Shown: positions 17,626 through 28,266, counted from the first letter of the stretch. The stretch is 32,000 nucleotides of DNA from Pasteurella multocida (GCF_900187275.1 NZ_LT906458.1:420001-452000); one strand, 5' to 3'. The notes: generated from the sequence alone by a model not told the origin. Numbers and translations are program-made.

Positions 17626-17877
17626 ATGTTATGTGCGATTTATAAAAGTACAAGAAAAATGGGGACATACCTTTATGTGGCAAAACGTGATCAATTTGAT
17701 GCGGTTCCCGAGGTATTAAGAAATGCTTTTGGTCCCCCTATTTTTGTGATGATGTTTAATCTCGCTGGCGAGAAAGCATTAGTTAATGCGGAGAAAGCCG
17801 AAGTCCGCAAACAAATTGAAACACAAGGTTTTTATTTACAGATGCCAAAAGAGGATGACTGGCTATTTAAGTTGTAG
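17626..17877 (+). CDS. ycgL: YcgL-family protein (UPF0745)
   Basis: [31 protein letters not shown]...QGFYLQMP matches E. coli YcgL ([29 protein letters not shown]...QGYYLQLP). The track ORF start 17497 is over-extended; ATG 17626 is the likely start. Confidence 0.8.
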
Positions 17878-18256
17878 CTTTACTTGGTGTAAAGCGTGCT
17901 TTGACAGGCATTCTTTCTAAAATACGCGCTCTATTGGCGGCTAAGGCATGCTCAGTAGGGATGTAGTCTAACCAGAGGTTATCGTCCTCTGGCAACTTGT
18001 CGGGCCAAATATATTGCACATTAAACCCCCGAGCTCGACATTCTTGATGCAATAAGTCATAACGTTTTTTGAGAAACTGGAGCTTGTTAAAGAAAAAGCG
18101 TACATGCCCTGTACCTAATTTATAATCTTCTGGCTGACCGAGGAGGCTAAATTTCCTTTTTGCCACAGCATTGGGAATACGTGTCAGTTCTCTGTGTTCT
18201 GCTAACAGATGTTGATCACAAAGTTCAGCGGGGGCGATGAGATTAATCCGTGTCAT
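17867..18256 (-). CDS. denV: Pyrimidine dimer DNA glycosylase / AP lyase, phage T4 endonuclease V (DenV) family
   Basis: The N-terminus [28 protein letters not shown] matches T4 DenV [27 protein letters not shown], and further on [16 protein letters not shown] matches GHVTFFYDKLEFLRKR. The length is 129 aa against about 138 aa. Confidence 0.88.
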
Positions 18257-18279
18257 GAAAATCCAAGACTGTATTGTGA

Positions 18280-18302
18280 AAATGGCATCAATGATGCCAT
18301 TT
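18280..18302 (-). other. Stem-loop between the cytochrome c gene and denV (possible end of the iron-uptake operon)
   Basis: AAATGGCATC (18280-18289) pairs with GATGCCATTT (18293-18302) around a 3-nt loop. There is no clear U-run beyond the TTT inside the stem. Confidence 0.4.
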
Positions 18303-18315
18303 CTCTGTGGGTGGT

Positions 18316-18618
18316 TTATTTCAGTGTTTCGATAAATTTTGCCACACTCTGCATATCTTCTTCAGATAAGCGAGATTTCGCGGCATTTCCGGCACCGATA
18401 ATTTGTCCTTCTTTACGTGCTTTGAGGGCATTGACAATTTCATTTGCCGGTAAATCTTTTAATGGACGTGATTGGTTTAAAGCGGATTTTTCCGCTTGGT
18501 TACCATGACAAAAGGAACAGGGTTTAAAAAGTTGTTGACCGCGTTCAACGCTGACATTTGCTTGTGCGATTGGAGCAAGTGCCAGCAAAATCCATAAAGC
18601 AGAGTCGTATTTTTTCAT
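18316..18618 (-). CDS. Small periplasmic mono-haem c-type cytochrome (class I, c553-like)
   Basis: Signal peptide ending AQA|N. A single CSFCH haem-binding motif lies 14 residues into the mature protein. The C-terminal helix LSEEDMQSVAKFIETL is typical of class I cytochromes c. The start lies 3 nt after the upstream gene's stop. Confidence 0.8.
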   Translation of the reverse strand: MKKYDSALWILLALAPIAQANVSVERGQQLFKPCSFCHGNQAEKSALNQSRPLKDLPANEIVNALKARKEGQIIGAGNAAKSRLSEEDMQSVAKFIETLK

Positions 18619-18621
18619 TCG

Positions 18622-19122
18622 TTAACCTTTAAAAAATAAGTGTAAATCCTGAGCAGGAATTAAGCCCTCGAATTTATAAAGGATTTTGCCCTCGGGGTCA
18701 ATAACGAAAGAGGTGGGGGTGCCTACTAATTGGTAGCGTTCAGCCGTGATCTTTAATTGATCTTTCACTACCAAAAGGGAAATTTCTCTTTTTTTTACAA
18801 GCGCTTGTGTATCTGCTTTGTCTCCATCAACGTTAATCGCAATAATATGTAAATTATTTTGTGGGTAAGACTGGAGAAGTTGTTCAAAGGTTTTTAATTC
18901 TGCAATACATACGCCACAGGTTTCTGACCAGAAATTGAGGAGAATGGTTTTTCCTTTCCCTTCATTTAAAGAACGTTGTGTGCCCGCTAAATCAAAAACG
19001 GCAATTTCGGGGGCTTGCTTACCAATGATCGCGATGTCTTCTTTACATCCAATACAACTTAGAACGATTGTGCAAAGAAGCAATGGCTTAAAAAGTGCGG
19101 TTAACAATACGCTTGTTTTCAT
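18622..19122 (-). CDS. Thioredoxin-fold (TlpA/ResA/redoxin-like) thiol:disulfide oxidoreductase lipoprotein
   Basis: Signal peptide [22 protein letters not shown]|C with a lipobox. The WSETCGVC CXXC motif and a redoxin-like fold pattern follow. The start is ATG 19122 (alternative 19149). Either start overlaps the 3' end of the ATPase gene. Confidence 0.8.
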   Translation of the reverse strand: MKTSVLLTALFKPLLLCTIVLSCIGCKEDIAIIGKQAPEIAVFDLAGTQRSLNEGKGKTILLNFWSETCGVCIAELKTFEQLLQSYPQNNLHIIAINVDGDKADTQALVKKREISLLVVKDQLKITAERYQLVGTPTSFVIDPEGKILYKFEGLIPAQDLHLFFKG

Positions 19123-19783
19123 TTGAGGCTTCTCGTAGGAATTTACCATGCTGTAAGAAAATAGTGCGGTCGGCCAGTTTACTTAGCTCAGGATTATGGG
19201 TGACCATCACGACTGTACGTCCTTGTTGGTTTAATGCGACGAGTAAATCGAGCACCAGTTGCTCATTTTTTTCATCTAGGTTTCCTGTCGGCTCATCGGC
19301 AAAAATCACCGGCGGCTGATTAACTAAGGCGCGCGCAATACACACACGTTGTTGTTCTCCGCCAGACAGTTGGCTTGGTCTGTGGTCGAAACGATGCGCC
19401 AGACCGACTTGTTGTAACACCGCCTTGGCTGCATCTTCATCAATTACACTGTGATAATGTTGTGCTAACATGACGTTTTCCAAGGCAGTTAAATAAGGGA
19501 TTAAGTGGAATTGCTGAAAGACCAGACCAATCTTCTCCGCCCGGAATCGTTGTCTGCCGATTTCATCAAGTTGTGCGGCATCGACACCGTCTAGGATCAC
19601 TTTTCCTTCACTGGCAGTGTCTAAACCAGTGAGAATATTCATTAACGTCGTTTTGCCTGAACCTGAGGCACCCATGATTGCAACAAATTCGCCTTCTTTA
19701 ATTTGAATGTTGATGTCTTCAAGTGCGGTCACTTGACCGAATCTTTTGTATAAATGTTGTGTTTCAATCACATAATTTGGCAT
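19088..19783 (-). CDS. ABC transporter ATP-binding protein (LolD/MacB-NBD-like)
   Basis: Walker [11 protein letters not shown]-loop, signature LSGGEQQRV, Walker [15 protein letters not shown] 19783 with GGAAA upstream gives [16 protein letters not shown]. Confidence 0.92.
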
Positions 19784-19831
19784 TTTTTCATTTCCTTTTT
19801 TAAATCCGCAAAACAAGCTAATGAATTGACC

Positions 19832-20971
19832 TTATTCGCCTTTTAATACATTGGCAGTTTGGATCGCTAATGCTCGACGTGTTGGGATGATCACGGCAAT
19901 AAATGCCACCAGTAAGGATAACAATATCGTAATTGGGATAACGGGTAAACGCATATCAATATAGGCTTTAAATACAGTGAGTCCAAGAACTTGTGCCAAT
20001 AAATAACCAATCACTAAACCCGTGAAAATAGCACAAATCGCAATAATGAAGGCTTCTGTGCCGATTTGCTGGATAATATCTTGCTTTTTTGCTCCCAAAG
20101 CTTTTTGTAGTGCAAATTCTTTTGCTCTTTCTCCCACAATGGCGATCAATGTGGTGTTTACACAAAGGGTTGCTAGGATCAGGATTACCACAGAAATTAA
20201 GCCCATTAAGCCTTTTATTTTCTCTAAGATTTGCCCCTCTGACGCAGACACCTTACGAATCGGGCGAATTTCTAAATCGGGATATGTTTGTTGCAGTGAG
20301 GTGGCAAATTGTTCCACTTGTCCTTGATCATTTTTGACATTGAGTAAAGCATTAGTGGCTTGCCCTTCTTTTTCTAGCCAATGTTGCGCAAATTCTAAAT
20401 TTACAATCAACATATTATCAGTGGCATCGCCGGCTTCAATGATGGCTTTGATATGGAAACGATGTTTTTCCACCGCATTTTTACTTAAAGTAATGCTATC
20501 GCCAACATTGAGTTGTAAGCGTTCTGCTAGGGTTTTGCCAATCATCGCATTTCGATCATCAAAATTGACGCCAATTTGCGATCCTGTGACTTGCCAATAA
20601 GGAGAAAGGGTTTTCATGTCTTCAAACCACACACCCATAATCACAATTTTTTCCAATTCACTGCGTGTGACACCATACAAATAAGGGCTTGCTGCGGTGA
20701 CTAAGCCGGCTGGTGCTTGGGCTAAAATTTGTTGCAGTTGCTGTTCTTGGATCAGTCCGCGGCTATTTGAGCCAATATAAAAATTGGCACCAAAGGTACG
20801 TAGCTCTTGGCTCATTTTGGTATTGATATCAAAATAGACAGCGGCCATTGCTGTGACAATACTGGCGCCAACAGTGAGTGCGGCAAAAATAATCAAGACG
20901 CGTTGTAAACGTAAGCGTAAGGCACGAAAAACTAAACGCCAGAACATGGACTTGGGTTTATTGGCGACCAT
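19832..20971 (-). CDS. FtsX/MacB-type ABC permease (second subunit)
   Basis: TM1, then a periplasmic domain of about 200 aa, then three C-terminal TM helices with the FALQKALGAKK amphipathic motif. ATG 20971 (GAGG 8 nt upstream) overlaps the upstream gene by 14 nt. Confidence 0.85.
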   Translation of the reverse strand: MVANKPKSMFWRLVFRALRLRLQRVLIIFAALTVGASIVTAMAAVYFDINTKMSQELRTFGANFYIGSNSRGLIQEQQLQQILAQAPAGLVTAASPYLYGVTRSELEKIVIMGVWFEDMKTLSPYWQVTGSQIGVNFDDRNAMIGKTLAERLQLNVGDSITLSKNAVEKHRFHIKAIIEAGDATDNMLIVNLEFAQHWLEKEGQATNALLNVKNDQGQVEQFATSLQQTYPDLEIRPIRKVSASEGQILEKIKGLMGLISVVILILATLCVNTTLIAIVGERAKEFALQKALGAKKQDIIQQIGTEAFIIAICAIFTGLVIGYLLAQVLGLTVFKAYIDMRLPVIPITILLSLLVAFIAVIIPTRRALAIQTANVLKGE

Positions 20972-22280
20972 ACAGCACCTCAACAGGGTAGAGATTGGCA
21001 ATCCGATGTGCCGGGAACCAGGTACCAATTAAGGCAATCAAGATAGAGAGCACTAATACACAAGGCACCACTATCCAGGTAAAATCTAAAGGGAGACCAA
21101 AAAGTGTAATACCAATAAATTTTGCTAGTCCCCAACCCGCTAAACATCCTAATATACCACCAAATAATGCGCTAATAGTGGCTTCACAGTAAAAGAGCAG
21201 GACAATCTGCCATTGGTATGCCCCCAACGCTTTCATCAAACCGATCTCTTTACTTCGTTCAATAATTGTACTGGTCATCAAGGAGGCTATCCCCATTGCC
21301 GCAGCAATCACTGCCGCTACGGTGACCACCGCCAATAATAATTGGATTTTTTCAATCACTACGCCTTCAGAGGCCGCGACTTGCCAGATAGGGCGAACAA
21401 TTGCGCCTGAAATCGCCTCTTCTAATTGATGAGCAATAGAGGATACATAAGCCGTACAGTACCAACGATCATATTCTTCAGCATCTAGTCCTTCAACATT
21501 GGCGCGTGCTTTGCGCGAAAGTTCATTTTCTGGCACGGTTAAAGCGGACACTTTAATGGCTTGGATTTTACCTTCGAGTCCAAGTAATTGTTGTACCGCA
21601 CTTAACGGTAGCACCAGTTGTTGTTCTTCGCTGCCACCAGTGGCAAGTATCCCTTTGATTTCTACTGTAAGCTGTTGTTGAAATTCCTCGTCTTGGTAAG
21701 CAAGATGAATCTGTTCACCGGGCTGGAGCGACCAGGTTTTGGCAAGTTGTTCTCCGGCTAAGGCAGGCACGATTGTGCTAAATTGATCCTGTAAATCATT
21801 GACCCACTCACCTTGTACTTTCCAATATGGACTGATAATCTTTTGTCCCGTATGGTAATCTGCTTCATCAGGAATGGCGATCTGACGATCAAAAAATGTG
21901 CCTAAAATCTGAATCGGTTGTAGTGTATTCTGATTAGCTTTTTGTGCTTGTACGTTCGCACTTAGTAACGGCGCAAAGCCGACAATGTTATTTCGCCAAA
22001 AAATGTTTTTTACATTAGGTAATTCTTTTTCATCAAGAAAGTCTTGGCTAGTTAATGAACTGGTGCCATTCACATCCTCGGGTAAAATCGCACGGCTAGC
22101 GGGTTCAATTAAAATATTGGCACCATAGGATTTTAATTCGCGCGCCATTTTGTCACCGATATCAATGGAAACCGCGAGGAGTGCGGAGACTAAACCTGCG
22201 GCAAGAAAAAGAGTTATGATTGCGAGAAGTTTGCGTTTTAAACCAAAGCGCCAAGATTGATATAACATTCTGGCTAACAT
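20958..22280 (-). CDS. FtsX/MacB-type ABC permease (first subunit)
   Basis: The architecture is the same, with a periplasmic domain of about 270 aa and a C-terminal FtsX module (IGLMKALGAYQWQI). Its ATG overlaps the stop of the upstream gene by 1 nt (TAATG). Confidence 0.85.
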   Translation of the reverse strand: MLARMLYQSWRFGLKRKLLAIITLFLAAGLVSALLAVSIDIGDKMARELKSYGANILIEPASRAILPEDVNGTSSLTSQDFLDEKELPNVKNIFWRNNIVGFAPLLSANVQAQKANQNTLQPIQILGTFFDRQIAIPDEADYHTGQKIISPYWKVQGEWVNDLQDQFSTIVPALAGEQLAKTWSLQPGEQIHLAYQDEEFQQQLTVEIKGILATGGSEEQQLVLPLSAVQQLLGLEGKIQAIKVSALTVPENELSRKARANVEGLDAEEYDRWYCTAYVSSIAHQLEEAISGAIVRPIWQVAASEGVVIEKIQLLLAVVTVAAVIAAAMGIASLMTSTIIERSKEIGLMKALGAYQWQIVLLFYCEATISALFGGILGCLAGWGLAKFIGITLFGLPLDFTWIVVPCVLVLSILIALIGTWFPAHRIANLYPVEVLYGRQ

Positions 22281-23677
22281 TACTTGCCTCCTTCTGCATT
22301 GAGGTAATTTTCTGGGGCATCTCGGAATAAATGAAGATTTTTTTCCGTAGCAAAGAAATACGTTTTGCCTTCGTAACTGTATTTGTGCTCAGTACGGGTA
22401 TTCTTCAGCTGACTGTGATCCACAGGATCGATCACGTCAATCTCAACGACAGTTGAAAAATAATGTAAGCCGTCTTCTAAGCTTTTTTTGTGAATAATCA
22501 CCTGAGTGTCCGTTTGTTGCCAATTTTCAATCGGAACAGGATTACAACCACCGGGTTTACCGATAGACGGAATAAACATTCTGACACCGCAACCTACGCA
22601 AATCACTTGATCGCCTTCCATGACATAACCCTGATCGCCACAAAGAATACAGGCATCAAAGACCGCGGCTAGACTTAAACGGTCAGGCAGGCGGTTAATT
22701 AAAAAAAAGCGTACTGCTTTTCCGTCATCTGCTATCCATACAAAGCGATGTAATTTGCCGTCTTTTACTTGTTCGATAGGGATATAAACTTGGTTCTTGT
22801 CATCCATATGTACAGGGATGGCTTCGGATAAGCGAGGCGGTTGAGAAGCCACTTTATCCCAGTAAAGTTGTGCCGTGAAAATGAACAATACGCAAACGCC
22901 TCCCCATTGTAAGAGACGGGATGACGTCAGTAGCGTGGCACGTTTTTTGCGTTTTTCAATTGGGTGTGTTTCTTGTTCTACGGCATGTTGACGAGCTAAA
23001 TGGACGCGGAACCAGAAACTCAGCATGATAATCAGTAAAATAGCACTTTGGAGATAATTAAAGAAATTGGTGAGGTTGCCAGCTTTCGCAACAAAGCTAA
23101 GCCTTGCTTTGGTTAAGTCGAGCAGTTGGAGTTTCATTAAACTTAACAGCAGCTCAGCGCTCTGTGGTATCAGTAATAAAATCACTATCAGGTAAGTGAG
23201 GAGAGGAGCAAGTGCGGTCAGTTTGTGTTGAATTTTACTTTGTTGTAATAAAAGACTGAGCCAGCTTGCGACAAAAATGGCAAGTAAAATCGCTAAGATG
23301 ATCGCACTGCTGTGTAAGATAAAATCGGTATTGATGACGTCGGTGTGTGTGATAGCGGACAGATTGGGATCTTTACCCCATAAAAGTCCTGCGATAAAGC
23401 TTAACAGGACGTGCCAAAAAGAGGTTAATGTTTTGTTATGCCAATATTGGCTGAGACAGAATAAAAGTAGGCTAGTGATAATCCACGCACTGAGCACTAA
23501 ATTAATGCGCTGGCTTTTTGGTAAATAGATGCTCAGAATTGCCCCAGCTACGAAACAAAGTAGCGCTAGCCACAGGCGTGATTTCATGTTCACTTGCGGA
23601 TGGTAGGACCACGCACAGCCAAGCAAGAGGGCAAAAGGCAGAAGCGTTTGCAGTAAAGACGTAAAAAAGTAATTCAT
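22280..23677 (-). CDS. Polytopic membrane protein with a C-terminal Cys-rich (DUF2318-like) domain and a Cys-less YHS-like tail
   Basis: About 7-8 N-terminal TM segments are followed by KRKKR, a last TM, and then a soluble region of about 190 aa. That region contains CILC-X13-CVGC-X14-C and ends in DPVDHSQL...YEGKTYFFATEKNLHLFRDAPENYL. The tail resembles the YHS pattern DPVCGM...G.tYyFCS..C...F...P..Y with the Cys positions replaced. Confidence 0.75.
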   Translation of the reverse strand: MNYFFTSLLQTLLPFALLLGCAWSYHPQVNMKSRLWLALLCFVAGAILSIYLPKSQRINLVLSAWIITSLLLFCLSQYWHNKTLTSFWHVLLSFIAGLLWGKDPNLSAITHTDVINTDFILHSSAIILAILLAIFVASWLSLLLQQSKIQHKLTALAPLLTYLIVILLLIPQSAELLLSLMKLQLLDLTKARLSFVAKAGNLTNFFNYLQSAILLIIMLSFWFRVHLARQHAVEQETHPIEKRKKRATLLTSSRLLQWGGVCVLFIFTAQLYWDKVASQPPRLSEAIPVHMDDKNQVYIPIEQVKDGKLHRFVWIADDGKAVRFFLINRLPDRLSLAAVFDACILCGDQGYVMEGDQVICVGCGVRMFIPSIGKPGGCNPVPIENWQQTDTQVIIHKKSLEDGLHYFSTVVEIDVIDPVDHSQLKNTRTEHKYSYEGKTYFFATEKNLHLFRDAPENYLNAEGGK

Positions 23678-23716
23678 AAGTTGTCCGCAATGCTGTGATA
23701 GTTGATTAGATACGAT

Positions 23717-23834
23717 AAGGCATAACTTTTGTTTGCCTTAAAATGCTACTATTTCCAATCGCACTTTGTCAGAAAAGCCACGATTGGAAATAGTGTATCG
23801 AAAATTGGTGTAAAGGTGCGTTTTTACGCACCTT
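23717..23834 (-). other. Three stem-loops in the 165-nt gap between the P19 gene and the downstream membrane-protein gene
   Basis: AAGGTGCG (23813-23820) pairs with CGCACCTT (23827-23834). CTATTTCCAATCG (23749-23761) pairs with CGATTGGAAATAG (23781-23793) as 13-bp perfect arms. AAGGCA (23717-23722) pairs with TGCCTT (23734-23739). Confidence 0.5.
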
Positions 23835-23842
23835 AAAGCGAC

Positions 23843-24364
23843 TTAGTTCAAGCCGGTATATTTGAATTCATAACTGACATCAAATGGTTTCCACCAACGA
23901 CCCACACCAGTTTCTTCATCGGTATGACGGTGCATCCCCGCTTTTGGTGGCGGCTCAATATGGTAAGTTAATTTATAGTTGCCTACGCCCATCATTTTGA
24001 TATTTAAGCCATAGTGTGGACCATCAGCCGCAACCATCGGCATAAAGGTACCTTCTTGTTTCTCACCAGTATCAGTATTGACTAAAGTATAGTTAATGGT
24101 GAGATATGGCATCCATTCTCCTTCACCAAAACCATTCACGTTACCTTTAATCGCATGAATATCTGCTTCTAAGTGAATATCAGATTTGGCTGCTGGCAGC
24201 CCCATACCACGCGGTTCCATGTCAACGGGCTGCAAATATACGGCTGCAATTTCCATACCGTTCATTTCAATAGGCTCACCAATTGGATATTCTTTAAATG
24301 CCAGCGCGGATGGTGCAGCTAAAATGCTGGCGAGTAAAGTGGTGGCTAAGAGTACTTTTTTCAT
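23843..24364 (-). CDS. fetP: Periplasmic P19/FetP/Tp34-family iron (copper-assisted) binding protein
   Basis: Signal peptide ending ALA|F. The mature protein of about 150 aa carries the family's conserved blocks (MEIAAVYLQPVDMEP, DIHLEADIHA, GFGEGEWMPYL, FMPMVAADGPHYG, YHIEPP). GAGGAG lies 8 nt upstream. It sits directly after the FTR1 permease gene. Confidence 0.88.
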   Translation of the reverse strand: MKKVLLATTLLASILAAPSALAFKEYPIGEPIEMNGMEIAAVYLQPVDMEPRGMGLPAAKSDIHLEADIHAIKGNVNGFGEGEWMPYLTINYTLVNTDTGEKQEGTFMPMVAADGPHYGLNIKMMGVGNYKLTYHIEPPPKAGMHRHTDEETGVGRWWKPFDVSYEFKYTGLN

Positions 24365-24403
24365 ACTTAATCTCCTCTGACTATTTAAGTATAGATTGTG
24401 AAA

Positions 24404-26308
24404 CTAAACTGCTTTGCGGTTCTGATATTTCATATAGAACAGGGCAAAAAGGGCTGCAATAAGTAATATCACTTGTGGTATCAAGGTTTCTAGGTAAGGA
24501 TAAATACCTAACCAACTGATCTCGGGTGCACCCACAATTAAAGTTGGTTCAAAAAGTTTACCTTCAATTAACTCTAATACGCTCTTGCCGGCAAAAACAA
24601 AGGCCATCAGATACATAAAGGTGCCAGTAAACATAAAGAAGGGTTTTAATGGCAGCTTCACCACGGTATAGCGCATAATCAAATAACAGACGGTGAGAAT
24701 GACTATGCCCACTACCAACCCTGCGAAAAGGTAGAGATAACTGACCGCACTTGTGGCATCAGCAACCAACGCGTAGTAGAACAATACAGTTTCCGCCCCT
24801 TCACGATAGACAGCGAGAAAACTGGTGAGCCATAGCCCAATCAATGAACCCGTTGTGAGTGCGCTAGACAATTTGCCTTCTAAATAACGTTGCCAATTTT
24901 GCGCTTCTACTTTGGATAATAGCCAGTAGCTCATCATAAATAACATCACTACAGCGATCATCATTGTAAAACCCTCTAGCAGCTCTCGACTGGCGCCTGC
25001 ATTAGCAAACACGAATTGAAAAATCACGGCGGTAATCAGGCTAGCGATCAAGGCAACATAGACAGATTGGCGAATAACGGGGAGCTTATCTTGATGTTGG
25101 TTTTTGATCAGATAAGTCACAATCGCAGCAACAATGAGCAAGGCTTCTAACCCTTCACGTAGAATAATTAACAGGCTATAAAGGAACATTGACCAATGAC
25201 TTTGTTTTCCTCCTTGTAACATCTCGACACTTTTGCTTAAGCCTTGAGCGAGCTGATTTGCTTGTTGTTGTAGTTGATCGGAGGAGGCATTGGCTTTGAT
25301 CAAACTTACTAAACGGGTGAAATAGCCTTCGAGTTCAGCTTTCATATTGCTGTCCCGTGCGCCTATTTTGTTTTCCATCCCACTGCTTTCGAAGACATCA
25401 AAATAGGTATCTTGTACAGCAAGCATTGCTTTTTTCTGTTCACCTTGTTGATATAAGTTCATCGCTTGTTGAATGCGTTGATTAATCTCATTCGTTACTT
25501 TCTGCCAGTCTTGATCGGGCGTATTGTCTGTTGAGTTGACTTGTGCTTGCACCACTTGTGTTTCACGCGTAGTCGGAAGATTTGGTAGCTGTTCTTCAAT
25601 CTCTTGTAACAACAACGTGATTTGGTAGCCTAAGTTATTGAGCTGATCCGGTTTTTCGCTAAGACGAATGAGATCATAAAATTGTTGATTAATGCTAGCT
25701 GAAATGGAGGCAGAACGATTTTGACGAATAGCCATTTCCATTTCAGCATTTTTAAAACCATCGTATTGTGCTTGCTGAACCCATTTTTTCGCTTGAGCAA
25801 ATTCGCCCTGTTCATAAGCACTGATCGCTTGGGCAAGCAGATCATCAATAATTTTAAAACTTTGTTGCCAGTGTTGGGCAATAGTTTGATTGCTATACAC
25901 GTCATGTTGGGCAGAGGCATTGAGTTGGTGTCCGTCCGTTAATACAGGTAATACTTCTTGCAGTTCGGATTTGAGACCATTGATTTTTGTTTGTATTGCT
26001 TCTAATGAAACACCTTCACCAATCATTTTGCGAATTTCAGCAAACGTCGCTTCCATTTGGTAACTTTTTTGTGCTGAGAAATTAATACGAATCGGACCTT
26101 CTAAGTTCTCGAACACTTCAAAATACGCCATTTGCACTTCCGTACGTGCTTCGTCAGCTTGACCTTGTTGATATAGATGCGCCGTTTTGTCTAAACGATG
26201 TTCAATGTCTTGAATCCACTCGGCATAATTGTCTTTAGCTTGTGTGAAGGCACAGAAAAACACGCTGAAAATGAGCACTAAATATCGAAGTTGTTTAACG
26301 TAAAACAT
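24404..26308 (-). CDS. fetM: FTR1-family iron permease with a large N-terminal periplasmic domain (FetM/cFtr1-like)
   Basis: Signal peptide MFYVKQLRYLVLIFSVFFCAFTQA|K. A helical periplasmic domain of about 350 aa is followed by seven TM segments carrying two REXXE motifs (ILREGLEALL and VYREGAETVL). ATG 26308 is preferred over TTG 26320. Confidence 0.88.
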   Translation of the reverse strand: MFYVKQLRYLVLIFSVFFCAFTQAKDNYAEWIQDIEHRLDKTAHLYQQGQADEARTEVQMAYFEVFENLEGPIRINFSAQKSYQMEATFAEIRKMIGEGVSLEAIQTKINGLKSELQEVLPVLTDGHQLNASAQHDVYSNQTIAQHWQQSFKIIDDLLAQAISAYEQGEFAQAKKWVQQAQYDGFKNAEMEMAIRQNRSASISASINQQFYDLIRLSEKPDQLNNLGYQITLLLQEIEEQLPNLPTTRETQVVQAQVNSTDNTPDQDWQKVTNEINQRIQQAMNLYQQGEQKKAMLAVQDTYFDVFESSGMENKIGARDSNMKAELEGYFTRLVSLIKANASSDQLQQQANQLAQGLSKSVEMLQGGKQSHWSMFLYSLLIILREGLEALLIVAAIVTYLIKNQHQDKLPVIRQSVYVALIASLITAVIFQFVFANAGASRELLEGFTMMIAVVMLFMMSYWLLSKVEAQNWQRYLEGKLSSALTTGSLIGLWLTSFLAVYREGAETVLFYYALVADATSAVSYLYLFAGLVVGIVILTVCYLIMRYTVVKLPLKPFFMFTGTFMYLMAFVFAGKSVLELIEGKLFEPTLIVGAPEISWLGIYPYLETLIPQVILLIAALFALFYMKYQNRKAV

Positions 26309-26318
26309 ACACTCACCC

Positions 26319-26356
26319 AAATGATAGTGATTATTATATTCGTTAGTATGATTATC
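26319..26356 (-). promoter_or_regulatory. Candidate Fur-box-overlapped promoter of the fetM operon
   Basis: The minus strand reads GATAATCATACTAACGAATATAATAATCACTATCATT. GATAATCAT and AATAATCACTATCATT both resemble the Fur consensus GATAATGATAATCATTATC. They flank and overlap a perfect TATAAT (complement of 26333-26338) 24 nt upstream of the ATG. The -35 is poor. Confidence 0.55.
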
Positions 26357-26473
26357 CTCTTATCGTTTTTTTTCGCAACAAGAAATCCTGCTTTGATGAT
26401 AAAAATGTGATAAAAAGCACAAATTTTATTACAAATATGCAGGGTATTTTTCAAAGTCGTTGGGGTAATGGAA

Positions 26474-26495
26474 TACTGTGATGTGAGTCACGAAA
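26474..26495. promoter_or_regulatory. Candidate CRP binding site upstream of pepE
   Basis: TACTGTGATGTGAGTCACGAAA contains TGTGA-N6-TCACG, which matches 9 of the 10 core positions of TGTGA-N6-TCACA. If CATAAT (26533-26538) is the -10, the site is centred near -61.5, a class I position. Confidence 0.45.
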
Positions 26496-26574
26496 TCAAC
26501 AATGCCAGCTGTTTATTTAGGGCGGTGCATTGCATAATGAGAGAAATATGACCATGAGTTCAGTGAGGAAAACG

Positions 26575-27279
26575 ATGAAAAACATGTTATTAATGAGCGG
26601 TTCGAAATATCAAAATACAGACTATTTAGTGCATACGTTGCCTTGGCTACAGGATTTTTTGGCAGACTATCAAGGGAAAACCGTTGCTTTTGTACCTTAT
26701 GCTGGAGTTCGTCAAAGTTATGATGAGTACGAATTAAAAGTCCAAAAAGCATTAGCTGAATTAAATGTGGCGATTCTTTCGGTTCACCGTGCAGAAAAAC
26801 ATGCAGAAATCATTGAAAAAGCGGATGTTATTGCGATTGGGGGAGGTAATACGTTTTGTTTATTAAAAGGCATGTATGAACATCATTTATTGCCATTGAT
26901 TCGCGAAAAAGTTCAGTCGGGTACACCGTATTTTGGTTGGAGTGCGGGGGCAAATGTGGCAGGTCGCTCTATTATGACCACCAATGATATGCCGATTACT
27001 TATCCGCCATCTTTTGACGCTTTAAATTTATTTCCACACCAACTAAATCCGCATTTTATTTCGGGCAAACCTGCTGGGCATAATGGAGAAAGTCGCGAAG
27101 AACGCTTAGCGGAATTCTTAATTGTCAACCCAACTGCCAACGTCTATGCCTTGCCAGAAGGAACCGCACTGCATATTCAAGGTCAGCAAGCGCGTGTATT
27201 GGGTCAACATGATGTGTTATTGTTCAGTGAAAATATGCAATTAGCGACCTTGCCGGTGAATAGCGTATTTGATTATTAA
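26575..27279 (+). CDS. pepE: Peptidase E (alpha-aspartyl dipeptidase, family S51)
   Basis: [10 protein letters not shown]..., [16 protein letters not shown] (Ser nucleophile), [19 protein letters not shown] and GESREERL are colinear with E. coli PepE. ATG 26575 has GAGGAA 6 nt upstream. The track start TTG 26530 is over-extended. Confidence 0.88.
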
Positions 27280-27284
27280 TCTCG

Positions 27285-27330
27285 CTTTCTGGTCTTTTTG
27301 TGAACTTTGTTTGGTGAAAAGATCAGAAAG
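27285..27330 (+). other. Long stem-loop between pepE and yfeX
   Basis: CTTTCTGGTCTTTT (27285-27298) pairs with AAAAGATCAGAAAG (27317-27330), giving 14 bp with one G-U pair and an 18-nt loop. No U-run follows. Confidence 0.45.
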
Positions 27331-27339
27331 ACTTATAAT
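27311..27339 (+). promoter_or_regulatory. Possible yfeX promoter
   Basis: TTGGTG (27311-27316), a 17-nt spacer, then a perfect TATAAT (27334-27339) 36 nt before ATG 27376. The spacer coincides with the 3' arm of the preceding hairpin. Confidence 0.35.
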
Positions 27340-27375
27340 CTGTACTGCTTTTTGATTAATAAGAGAGAGAACAAA

Positions 27376-28266
27376 ATGACAGCGCAAAGTGGCGTATTAT
27401 TAGAGCATTGCAAAGCTGCAATTTATTTAGAAGCAAACATCACGGATCTGACGGTGATTCCTGAAGCAAGTCGTCAATTCTGTGACAAATTAGCACAATT
27501 ACAACAAACCTATCCTGATGCTAGACTAGGCGCGGTTGTTGCCTTTGGCGATAGGGTGTGGAAACAATTAGCAGGAGAGAACAGTGCAAAAGAGCTCAAA
27601 CCTTTTGTGACATTAGGTAAAGGTGATGCCTCCGCACCTGCCACCCAATGGGATCTGTTGATTCATATTCAATCTTTACGTCCTGATGTGAATTTTTCTG
27701 TCGCCTTAGCCGCGATGAACTGCTTTGGTAAAGCGATTCAGGTTGAGCAAGAAATTCATGGTTTTCGCTGGGTAGAAGAACGTGATTTTACTGGTTTTAT
27801 TGATGGTACAGAAAATCCACAAGCAACAAAACGCGCAGAGGTCGCACTCATTGCACAAGGTGACGATACGGATGGAAGTTATGTCTTTACACAACGCTAT
27901 GAGCATAATTTAACCAAATGGGAAAAGCTTACTACTGCGAAGCAGGAAATGGTAATTGGGCGGACTAAGCCGGACAGTATTGAGTTAGAAAATAAAGTGG
28001 ATACCTCACATGTAGGGCGAACTGATCTAAAAGAAAATGGTGTGGGATTAAAAATTTTACGTCATAGTTTACCTTATGGTAAAGCCAGTGAGAAACACGG
28101 TTTATTCTTTGTTGCTTACTGTGCAACCCTGTATAACATTGAGCAACAGTTACTCAATATGTTTGGTGAAAAAGACGGTAAAACCGATCGTTTACTAGGC
28201 TTTACTAAAGCAGTAACCGGGAGCTATTATTTTGCGCCGTCATTAGAGAAATTAAAAACTCTCTAA
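27376..28266 (+). CDS. yfeX: DyP-type peroxidase / porphyrinogen oxidase YfeX
   Basis: [21 protein letters not shown]..., [21 protein letters not shown] and [31 protein letters not shown] are colinear with E. coli YfeX. ATG 27376 is preferred over the track start. Confidence 0.9.

Follow-up and report, generated by a model that had tools for sequence, protein, structure and literature searches.

The 32,000-nucleotide (nt) stretch of Pasteurella multocida DNA analysed here (GCF_900187275.1, NZ_LT906458.1:420001-452000; hereafter 'the window') carries eight consecutive co-directional open reading frames (ORFs) on its minus strand, from 26308 to 18316, and every product has a strong family match in Pfam. 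In order of transcription, they encode an FTR1-family iron permease (FetM), the periplasmic metal-binding protein FetP (P19), a polytopic membrane protein with a Cys-rich domain (FetA), two FtsX-type permeases (FetB and FetC), an ATP-binding cassette (ABC) ATPase (FetD), a TlpA/ResA-type thioredoxin-fold protein resembling FetE, and a small c-type cytochrome (Table 1). An earlier, sequence-only reading of this DNA had assigned domains to all eight products; Pfam and NCBIfam profiles confirmed these assignments (FTR1, P19, DUF2318, FtsX, MacB core, ABC_tran, redoxin and cytochrome c), and the Cys motifs that it quoted are present (CX2C-X13-CX2C-X14-C in FetA, CGVC in the redoxin and CSFCH in the cytochrome). 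From sequence, we consider it very probable (roughly 0.85-0.95) that the cluster is the P. multocida orthologue of the FetMP-FetABCDE(F) iron-uptake system (FetMP-Fls or FetMP-Flp), in both identity and general role. The window holds the Pasteurellaceae version, in which a gene for a small c-type cytochrome, rather than one for a second thioredoxin, takes the eighth place.

Table 1. Features of the fetMP-fetABCD-trx-cytC locus (positions in the window)
Feature	Coordinates	Strand	Evidence
fetM, FTR1-family iron permease, 634 residues	24404-26308	-	Pfam FTR1 1.4e-44
fetP (P19), periplasmic Cu/Fe-binding protein	23843-24364	-	Pfam Iron_transport/P19 PF10634 2.4e-70
fetP-fetA spacer, 165 nt, structured	23678-23842	-	Minimum free energy and z-score
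fetA (flsD/flpD-like), polytopic membrane protein	22280-23677	-	Pfam FtrD-like (former DUF2318) PF10080 1.7e-29; YHS PF04945 1.4e-19
fetB, FtsX-type permease	20958-22280	-	Pfam FtsX 7.3e-20
fetC, second FtsX-type permease	19832-20971	-	Pfam FtsX 1.7e-17; MacB_PCD 3.7e-12
fetD, ABC ATPase	19088-19783	-	Pfam ABC_tran 1.1e-36
trx, fetE-like TlpA/ResA-type thioredoxin-fold protein	18622-19122 (or 19149)	-	Pfam AhpC-TSA/Redoxin 2.1e-21
cytC, small periplasmic class-I c-type cytochrome	18316-18618	-	Pfam Cytochrom_C 2.3e-7
Fur-box-like site GAATATAATAATCACTATC	26323-26341	-	15/19 against the consensus GATAATGATAATCATTATC
Sigma-70-like promoter candidate, TTGCGA-16 nt-GATAAT	26351-26378	-	Consensus scan 9/12
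Terminator-like hairpin 3' of cytC, then a short U-run	~18280-18303	-	dG -15.8 kcal/mol, z -3.7

The system has been published before, for this species too, and so has its cytochrome variant. The sequence-only reading had proposed the cluster as under-described biology, and in this it went too far: Liu 2018 (PMC6083913) lists the P. multocida Pm70 locus (Fig. 3B; Table S3, PM_RS02335 to PM_RS02300), gives 31, 56, 25, 37, 33, 57 and 24% identity between its proteins and those of Campylobacter jejuni (Table S3), and describes the eighth gene as variable, a cytochrome or a hypothetical protein being possible; deletions of the accessory genes in C. jejuni have also been published. Because the eighth gene varies, the second thioredoxin, FetF, marks the C. 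jejuni version and not the family. The same study reported the gene set in 33 species from six phyla, Gram-positive bacteria included.

The parallels that the sequence-only reading had drawn with C. jejuni cj1658-cj1665 and Yersinia pestis fetMP-flp are borne out by the literature. In C. jejuni, in which the system has been described by Liu 2018 (PMC6083913) and Richardson-Sanchez 2023 (PMC10783030), deletion of fetA, fetB, fetC or fetD singly, or of fetE and fetF jointly, led to poorer growth at low iron; the single accessory deletions phenocopied deletion of fetP, and the defects were relieved by iron. For Y. pestis, according to the passage of Liu 2018 (PMC6083913) that relays this work, complementation of a fetMP mutant requires the downstream genes. 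These genetic results agree with the earlier view that the accessory genes are required through a mechanism not yet explained. In the FetMP-Fls system of the Salmonella plasmid pUO-StVR2, deletion of fetMP-flsDA lowered cellular iron about five-fold (PMC7285068). Among homologues, FetP/P19 binds iron beside a copper site and passes it to the FTR1-type permease FetM, and the homologous clusters are Fur- and iron-regulated. Our literature search turned up neither a study devoted to P. multocida nor, after 2023, any paper on mechanism. The cluster is a conserved, infection-induced iron route of many pathogens, among them Campylobacter, Yersinia, plasmids of extraintestinal pathogenic Escherichia coli and Salmonella, Aggregatibacter, Haemophilus parainfluenzae and Pasteurella.

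To place the window form among its relatives, we compared loci by tblastn with the eight window proteins in a one-genome-per-species scan, which gave 80 loci, all from Pasteurellaceae, 67 of them with enough sequence after fetD to be informative. All eight genes were present in the same order in 64 of the 67; the other three, all from Avibacterium, had neither thioredoxin nor cytochrome. The two FtsX genes followed by the ABC ATPase gene were found in identical order in the 80 Pasteurellaceae loci, in E. coli pEC958 and in distant metagenomic clusters, and the core FTR1-P19-FetA-FtsX-FtsX-ATPase was kept in the five distant FetA clusters sampled. In the neighbourhood comparison that had been suggested, the gene order was nearly always the same in Pasteurellaceae, and the core order was shared by pEC958 and the distant clusters. 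Identity to the window across loci was highest for FetP (83-98%) and FetD (83-95%), followed by FetA (55-82%), the redoxin (44-80%) and the cytochrome (34-92%). A megablast search of E. coli genomes returned no match, because the homologues there have diverged too far in DNA sequence. FetA is 99.8% identical to that of P. multocida record NZ_CP020346.1, where the cluster is annotated as the series FTR1, iron transporter, Fe-S-containing protein, ABC permease, FtsX-like, ABC ATPase and cytochrome c.

Compared with C. jejuni (CJJ81176_1649-1656, equivalent to cj1658-cj1665), the first seven genes are alike in order and domains, and both clusters have an upstream Fur box. The fetP-fetA spacer is non-coding in both, with 82 nt in C. 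jejuni and 165 nt in P. multocida. At the eighth position, P. multocida has the c-type cytochrome, whereas C. jejuni has FetF; the single P. multocida thioredoxin has the CGVC motif of FetF, while C. jejuni FetE has CPSC. The enterobacterial FetMP-Fls/Flp clusters (E. coli F11 and pEC958, Salmonella pUO-StVR2 and Y. pestis) share the seven-gene core, with 42-82% identity of the P. multocida proteins to those of pEC958. In pEC958, a Fur-like site lies at the same upstream distance and a GC-rich hairpin follows fetP, as in P. multocida; this E. coli version differs in having a gene for an FMN-binding (flavin mononucleotide-binding, NqrC-like) protein upstream, a helix-turn-helix (HTH) eighth gene and no cytochrome, and in being plasmid-borne and flanked by IS26.

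The individual products fit this assignment. FetM has a signal peptide followed by a periplasmic N-terminal domain of ~355 residues, and 378 residues precede the first transmembrane helix; it is 63% identical to pEC958 FetM, and its matches to the NCBIfam EfeU/Ftr1 models are under the equivalog cut-offs. The sequence-only reading had counted two REXXE motifs in the permease; the motifs are there, but as three strings (REGLE 384, RELLE 441 and REGAE 502). FetP matched, by sequence, the Protein Data Bank (PDB) entries 3NRP (E. coli FetP, 1e-93) and 3LZL (C. jejuni P19, 4e-64), as well as FtrA entries (1e-55). FetB and FetC each have one transmembrane helix, a large periplasmic domain (263 residues in FetB, 217 in FetC) and then three further helices, and their sequence relatives in the PDB are MacB, LolC/LolE, LolF and YtrF. 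A MacB_PCD match was found in FetC; window FetB had no such Pfam match at E<0.01, whereas FetB homologues elsewhere do have matches, some of them weak. FetD, with intact Walker A, signature, Walker B and H-loop motifs, belongs to the LolD/MacB/FtsE clade, and its best NCBIfam matches (LolD, a putative bacteriocin-export ABC ATPase (TIGR03608), YbbA, FtsE and MacB) all score under their cut-offs.

Domains, topology and PDB sequence matches thus agree with the earlier claim that FetBCD is an FtsX/MacB/LolCDE-type ABC system and not a conventional importer, and the sequence evidence supports placing it in that class (type VII). It shares with MacB, LolCDE, FtsEX, YtrF and LolF the ATPase clade, the four-helix FtsX topology, the large periplasmic domain between the first two helices and, in FetC, MacB_PCD. 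Membership of LolCDE itself was ruled out: the lolCE model gave 62.6 for FetC and 43.8 for FetB against a cut-off of 362, and LolD gave 214.7 against 307.75 (NCBIfam). As the FetBCD scores are far under the equivalog cut-offs, the unit would be a type VII ABC system distinct from those that have names. Like LolCE, it would be a heterodimer; unlike these systems, it lies within an iron-uptake operon and comes without an adaptor or a LolA-like partner. Richardson-Sanchez 2023 (PMC10783030) treats the unit as a generic ABC transporter, with no mention of MacB or mechanotransmission, and the type VII point made by the sequence-only reading is a reasonable refinement of that description.

The sequence-only reading had described one operon with overlaps of 1, 14 and 35 nt and gaps of 3-48 nt. 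The overlaps stand (fetA/fetB 1 nt, fetB/fetC 14 nt, and fetD/trx 35 nt if trx begins at its second ATG, 19122), as do gaps of 39, 48 and 3 nt, but the gap of 165 nt between fetP and fetA lies outside the range given. The eight genes may form one operon; a terminator-like hairpin in the spacer suggests that fetMP and the downstream genes are unequally expressed. The ATG of fetM is at 26308, and the mechanically called ORF begins at a TTG at 26320. The Fur-like site claimed for the 5' end, 15 nt upstream of this ATG, proved to be the best Fur-box match of the whole 32-kb window (matches of at least 15/19 are expected ~0.25 times by chance). Two further Fur-like matches of 13/19 are offset by 6 nt on either side of it (26317-26335 and 26329-26347), and sites of 14-15/19 are comparably placed in Bisgaard Taxon 45, P. 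oralis, Aggregatibacter and E. coli pEC958. The sigma-70-like promoter candidate lies just upstream of the Fur site; it is weak evidence alone, because the total of such matches in the region was not above that in shuffled sequences. At the other end, the 3' hairpin described earlier is present, although with a short U-tract, and it was not picked up by the consensus terminator scan. Iron restriction induces the DUF2318 gene of Avibacterium paragallinarum; this is the sole Pasteurellaceae transcript evidence that we found.

The fetP-fetA spacer is among the most structured stretches of the locus (minimum free energy -52.1 kcal/mol, z = -6.1). A terminator-like, 9-bp GC-rich hairpin directly follows the fetP stop codon (~23813-23834). 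It is followed by a perfect 14-bp inverted repeat, ACTATTTCCAATCG and CGATTGGAAATAGT (23748-23761 and 23781-23794, arms 19 nt apart), which occurs once in the window, and then by a third, smaller hairpin; the consensus scan also found a promoter-like match within the spacer. Judged by eye from spacer starts together with whole-spacer free energies, many of the spacers examined, that of pEC958 among them, likewise have a GC-rich hairpin behind fetP, but the hairpins are unrelated in sequence. Rfam gave no family match in 17800-26800 at E<=1. The hairpin pattern suggests an intra-operon attenuator or mRNA-stabilising element, of which it is typical, and such an element would give more FetM and FetP than accessory proteins. 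Regulatory elements have been suspected in the corresponding spacer of C. jejuni, and the P. multocida pattern fits.

FetA has about eight transmembrane helices, followed by the DUF2318/FtrD-like Cys-rich domain and then a YHS domain. A KR-rich loop before the last helix places both C-terminal domains in the periplasm by the positive-inside rule. A family search over 1.84 billion representatives yielded 993 family clusters. In 105 diverse full-length homologues, the five Cys of the motif C343xxC346-x13-C360xxC363-x14-C378 are invariant, as are D341, Y351, G373, G377, N379, P380, F407 and R243. In the window protein, the YHS domain has no Cys and its putative ligand positions are variable. AlphaFold2 models were confident (predicted local distance difference test 95.1 for full-length FetA and 94.4 for its periplasmic part, residues 276-465). 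With the modelled periplasmic domain isolated, the best PDB folds were Rieske domains, at modest scores: the top match was the biphenyl-dioxygenase Rieske ferredoxin 1FQT (E 6e-3, probability 1.0, target TM-score 0.53), with oxygenase Rieske domains and the Rieske protein of complex III coming next. Full-length FetA had no significant PDB fold match (best E 0.05, TM-score ~0.2), and a sequence search of the PDB with FetA found nothing. Arg243, just before the last transmembrane helix, is the sole invariant FetA residue outside the periplasmic domain. Around it (residues 225-260, ~22900-23005 on the minus strand), many distant homologues have RRW preceded by NPAExRK, reminiscent of a twin-arginine signal ahead of a domain that bears a cofactor; we considered twin-arginine export of the domain, but P. 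multocida has SSRLL, with the single invariant Arg, instead of RRW.

The two products encoded after fetD are a redoxin and a haem protein. The thioredoxin is a probable lipoprotein (...VLSCIGC) with a CGVC motif; it matched the NCBIfam ResA subfamily (2.4e-25) and, in the PDB, ResA, TlpA and C. jejuni FetE (8T4C, 3.3e-11). The cytochrome has a signal peptide and a single haem motif, CSFCH, and matched c553 in the PDB (8e-6). The CXXCH motif is kept in 70 of 70 Pasteurellaceae cytochrome orthologues, in which no Met or His column is conserved after it; the invariant positions after CXXCHG are A46, S50, L65, R68, G77, K81 and L84. The segment of Desulfovibrio c553 that we take to bear the axial Met aligns to a gap in the window cytochrome. 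These alignments suggest unusual ligation, and the haem may be His/Lys-ligated or five-coordinate. In two Rodentibacter orthologues (L075 and L076), the mature cytochrome is without any Met or His.

Across lineages, this position after fetD is a variable slot. In Pasteurellaceae, a dedicated cytochrome c nearly always accompanies the thioredoxin, but among the distant clusters we found thioredoxin alone (L084); an unrelated cytochrome c alone, 22% identical and of the Cytochrome_CBB3 type (L083, 10749-11270); a thioredoxin, a PCu(A)C copper chaperone (3.4e-18) and an FMN-binding protein (L086, 11986-13197); and an FMN-binding protein, two ORFs without a family match and a fumarate-reductase-like flavoprotein (L089, 5745-9044). 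E. coli pEC958 has a thioredoxin and the HTH protein after fetD, while its FMN-binding gene precedes fetM. The slot can accept each of the three classes of extracytosolic electron carrier. This variability fits the proposal of Meheust 2021, who described interchange of FMN-binding proteins and thioredoxins in P19 clusters as that of interchangeable extracytosolic electron mediators and noted no recognisable transmembrane electron-transfer component in these clusters.

Taken together, the invariant periplasmic Cys5 on a Rieske-like scaffold, the TlpA/ResA-type redoxin and the three carrier classes in one slot argue for a periplasmic redox-support module made up of FetA, the TlpA-like lipoprotein and the cytochrome c, a role to which we would give at best an even chance. 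The Cys-rich domain of FetA, on its Rieske-like beta scaffold, would serve as a membrane-anchored redox or metal centre and the cytochrome as a soluble one-electron shuttle; the module would move electrons to or from the FetP/FetM iron site, or keep the five periplasmic Cys of FetA reduced and metal-loaded, or both. TlpA/ResA-type redoxins typically keep the Cys of metal or haem sites reduced, and a one-electron carrier (haem or flavin semiquinone) matches the Cu(I)/Cu(II) and Fe(II)/Fe(III) chemistry at FetP. Electrons could run either way, being taken from Fe(II) oxidation or supplied for Fe(III) reduction. FetB, FetC and two copies of FetD might, by analogy and with odds that we put no higher than even, form a heterodimeric type VII machine in which cytoplasmic ATP drives conformational work of the periplasmic domains without substrate import, for example in iron release or hand-over, or in gating of FetA or FetM. 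We regard as quite improbable a further-reaching form of this proposal, in which the Pasteurellaceae operon would encode a self-contained periplasmic one-electron chain from the Met-less c-type haem through a Rieske-like FetA Cys5 metal centre and the P19 copper to Fe(II)/Fe(III), its geometry set or reset by ATP-driven mechanotransmission of FetBCD. If true, this would make the cluster an ABC-powered machine for redox and metal hand-over, with FetA as the membrane link of P19 systems. The window reveals no new system; its contribution is a set of incremental clues: the Rieske-like FetA domain, a cytochrome in which no distal ligand is conserved, the occurrence or loss of thioredoxin and cytochrome as a pair, and the structured spacer. 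The near-constant pairing of thioredoxin with cytochrome c, the three carrier classes in the slot and the Rieske-like scaffold of the invariant Cys-rich FetA domain together narrow the question of what makes four additional membrane proteins necessary for an FTR1/P19 transporter, and point towards a redox or metal-centre model.

Several observations weigh against a redox-support module. The resemblance of FetA to Rieske proteins is modest and at fold level only: a profile search with the FetA domain brought up no Rieske protein and nothing beyond YHS-like repeats, in adenylate kinase 9 and in a ciliary protein, and the ligands are CxxC...CxxC, not the Rieske CxH...CxxH, with no conserved His there. 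A pre-assembled Fe-S cluster is unlikely in the domain because it is C-terminal, periplasmic and Sec-inserted, and Zn, mononuclear Fe or Cu, or plain disulfide chemistry is equally possible at the site. The membrane domain of FetA has no invariant His or Cys among the 105 homologues, and hence no obvious transmembrane electron path. A cytochrome with no conserved sixth ligand is atypical for a simple electron shuttle, and C. jejuni FetE (PDB 8T4C) looks more like a thiol oxidase than a reductant (PMC10783030). The three Avibacterium loci without thioredoxin and cytochrome (A. volantium, L021; A. gallinarum, L026; A. paragallinarum, L066) have an unrelated gene directly after fetD, and in P. 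multocida CIRMBP-0884 (L001, NZ_CP020346.1, 11529-12055) the thioredoxin gene, intact in the window, is frameshifted into unannotated ORFs of 127 and 50 residues, which could be a real pseudogene or a homopolymer sequencing error. Because of these four cases, thioredoxin and cytochrome may be dispensable or replaceable. As for FetBCD, we infer mechanotransmission from family membership only. The thioredoxin and cytochrome genes are both present in Avibacterium sp. 21-586 (L068). In L066, the fetP-fetA spacer is 1294 nt long and holds an ORF of 320 residues on the opposite strand, which we take from its sequence, unchecked against family libraries, to be a transposase.

Other readings of the accessory genes draw on much of the same evidence. 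Reductive release, as put forward in the literature (Liu 2018, PMC6083913; Meheust 2021), has electrons pass outward through the thioredoxin, FMN protein or cytochrome to chelated Fe(III), whose periplasmic reduction to Fe(II) would free the iron for FetP and FetM, with FetBCD or FetA supplying or relaying the reducing power. The interchange of thioredoxin, FMN_bind and cytochrome c does resemble assimilatory iron reductase systems, and L089 joins FMN_bind with its fumarate-reductase-like flavoprotein. We nonetheless find this model somewhat unlikely, given that FTR1 permeases are classed in the literature as oxidase-dependent transporters, that FetE behaves more like an oxidase, that the cluster has no recognisable transmembrane electron-transfer component and that a MacB-type ABC ATPase is not known to move electrons. 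The module could instead serve copper: the main task of FetA, the TlpA-like thioredoxin and FetBCD would be to take up Cu(I), hold it in the reduced state and load it into FetP/P19, a protein that needs copper, in parallel with TlpA-ScoI-PCuAC metallation of CuA sites, while the cytochrome adjusted the copper/thiol redox state. Thiolate-rich sites favour Cu(I), the best characterised relatives of the thioredoxin are ResA and TlpA, YHS is a domain type generally linked to copper and heavy-metal proteins, and in L086 the PCu(A)C gene comes directly after the thioredoxin gene. PCuAC, however, was found in one of the few clusters sampled, the window YHS domain has neither Cys nor constant putative ligand positions, the C. 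jejuni accessory-gene defects are relieved by iron with copper rescue unreported, and FMN-binding proteins or cytochromes in the slot would be left unexplained; we judge copper loading to be unlikely.

For FetBCD, the family resemblance to MacB, together with the C. jejuni model in which iron arrives on an unidentified chelator, would allow a MacAB- or PvdRT-like expulsion or recycling pump that, once iron has been released, rids the periplasm or outer leaflet of emptied chelator or of a toxic by-product. Yet the cluster encodes no adaptor (membrane-fusion) protein or outer-membrane partner, and Gram-positive bacteria, to which tripartite efflux does not apply, have this gene set as well, making such a pump very improbable. 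Finally, the six genes after fetP might be a separate unit merely adjoining fetMP, for instance a peptide or antimicrobial ABC exporter with redox helpers: the 165-nt spacer holds both a terminator-like hairpin and a promoter-like match, and the ATPase scores equally well against bacteriocin-exporter models. This is hardly credible in view of the synteny in 64 of 67 Pasteurellaceae loci, in five distant clusters and in 33 species of six phyla (Liu 2018, PMC6083913), and published genetics has already largely refuted it, with C. jejuni single deletions phenocopying the fetP deletion and, as far as the relayed account goes, Y. pestis complementation needing the downstream genes.

Related iron and copper systems share parts of this arrangement. 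The pairing of P19 (FtrA) with an FTR1 permease (FtrC) in Bordetella and Brucella FtrABCD is common to the P. multocida cluster, and the proposed logic, periplasmic Fe(II) oxidation with an electron sink in the membrane, is alike. A likeness of FetA to FtrD is suggested by the Pfam name 'FtrD-like' for DUF2318. No cupredoxin (as in FtrB) or ferredoxin domain (as in the polyferredoxin FtrD) was called by Pfam in the eight P. multocida products, and FtrABCD, unlike the P. multocida cluster, is without a type VII ABC transporter, thioredoxin or cytochrome. In EfeUOB, too, an FTR1-family permease works with redox partners in the periplasm, one of them a haem protein, the DyP peroxidase EfeB; the P. 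multocida operon encodes neither EfeO nor EfeB. With the TlpA-ScoI-PCuAC toolkit for copper sites, the cluster shares a TlpA/ResA-like thioredoxin beside a Cys-rich metal-site protein, and PCuAC in one lineage; the window, however, has no Sco or PCuAC, and the target would be FetA or FetP, not cytochrome oxidase.

Around the cluster lie a pepE dipeptidase gene (26530-27279, plus strand), a Dyp-type peroxidase gene (27307-28266, plus strand) and a DenV-like pyrimidine-dimer DNA glycosylase gene (17867-18256, minus strand), all of which adjoin it only in P. multocida and a few relatives. The DenV-like gene, 59 nt downstream on the same strand, was rejected as a ninth operon member, as its adjacency is confined to the P. 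multocida group. The Dyp-type peroxidase was rejected as an EfeB-like partner, since pepE intervenes and adjacency is seen in few genera only; by eye, with no predictor run, its N-terminus has no obvious export signal. In NZ_CP020346.1, the cluster is flanked by pepE, the Dyp-type peroxidase gene, mrcB and the DenV-like glycosylase gene. This 325-kb record, labelled a plasmid and non-mobilizable, carries mrcB, pepE and sixA and is probably a chromosomal fragment deposited as a plasmid.

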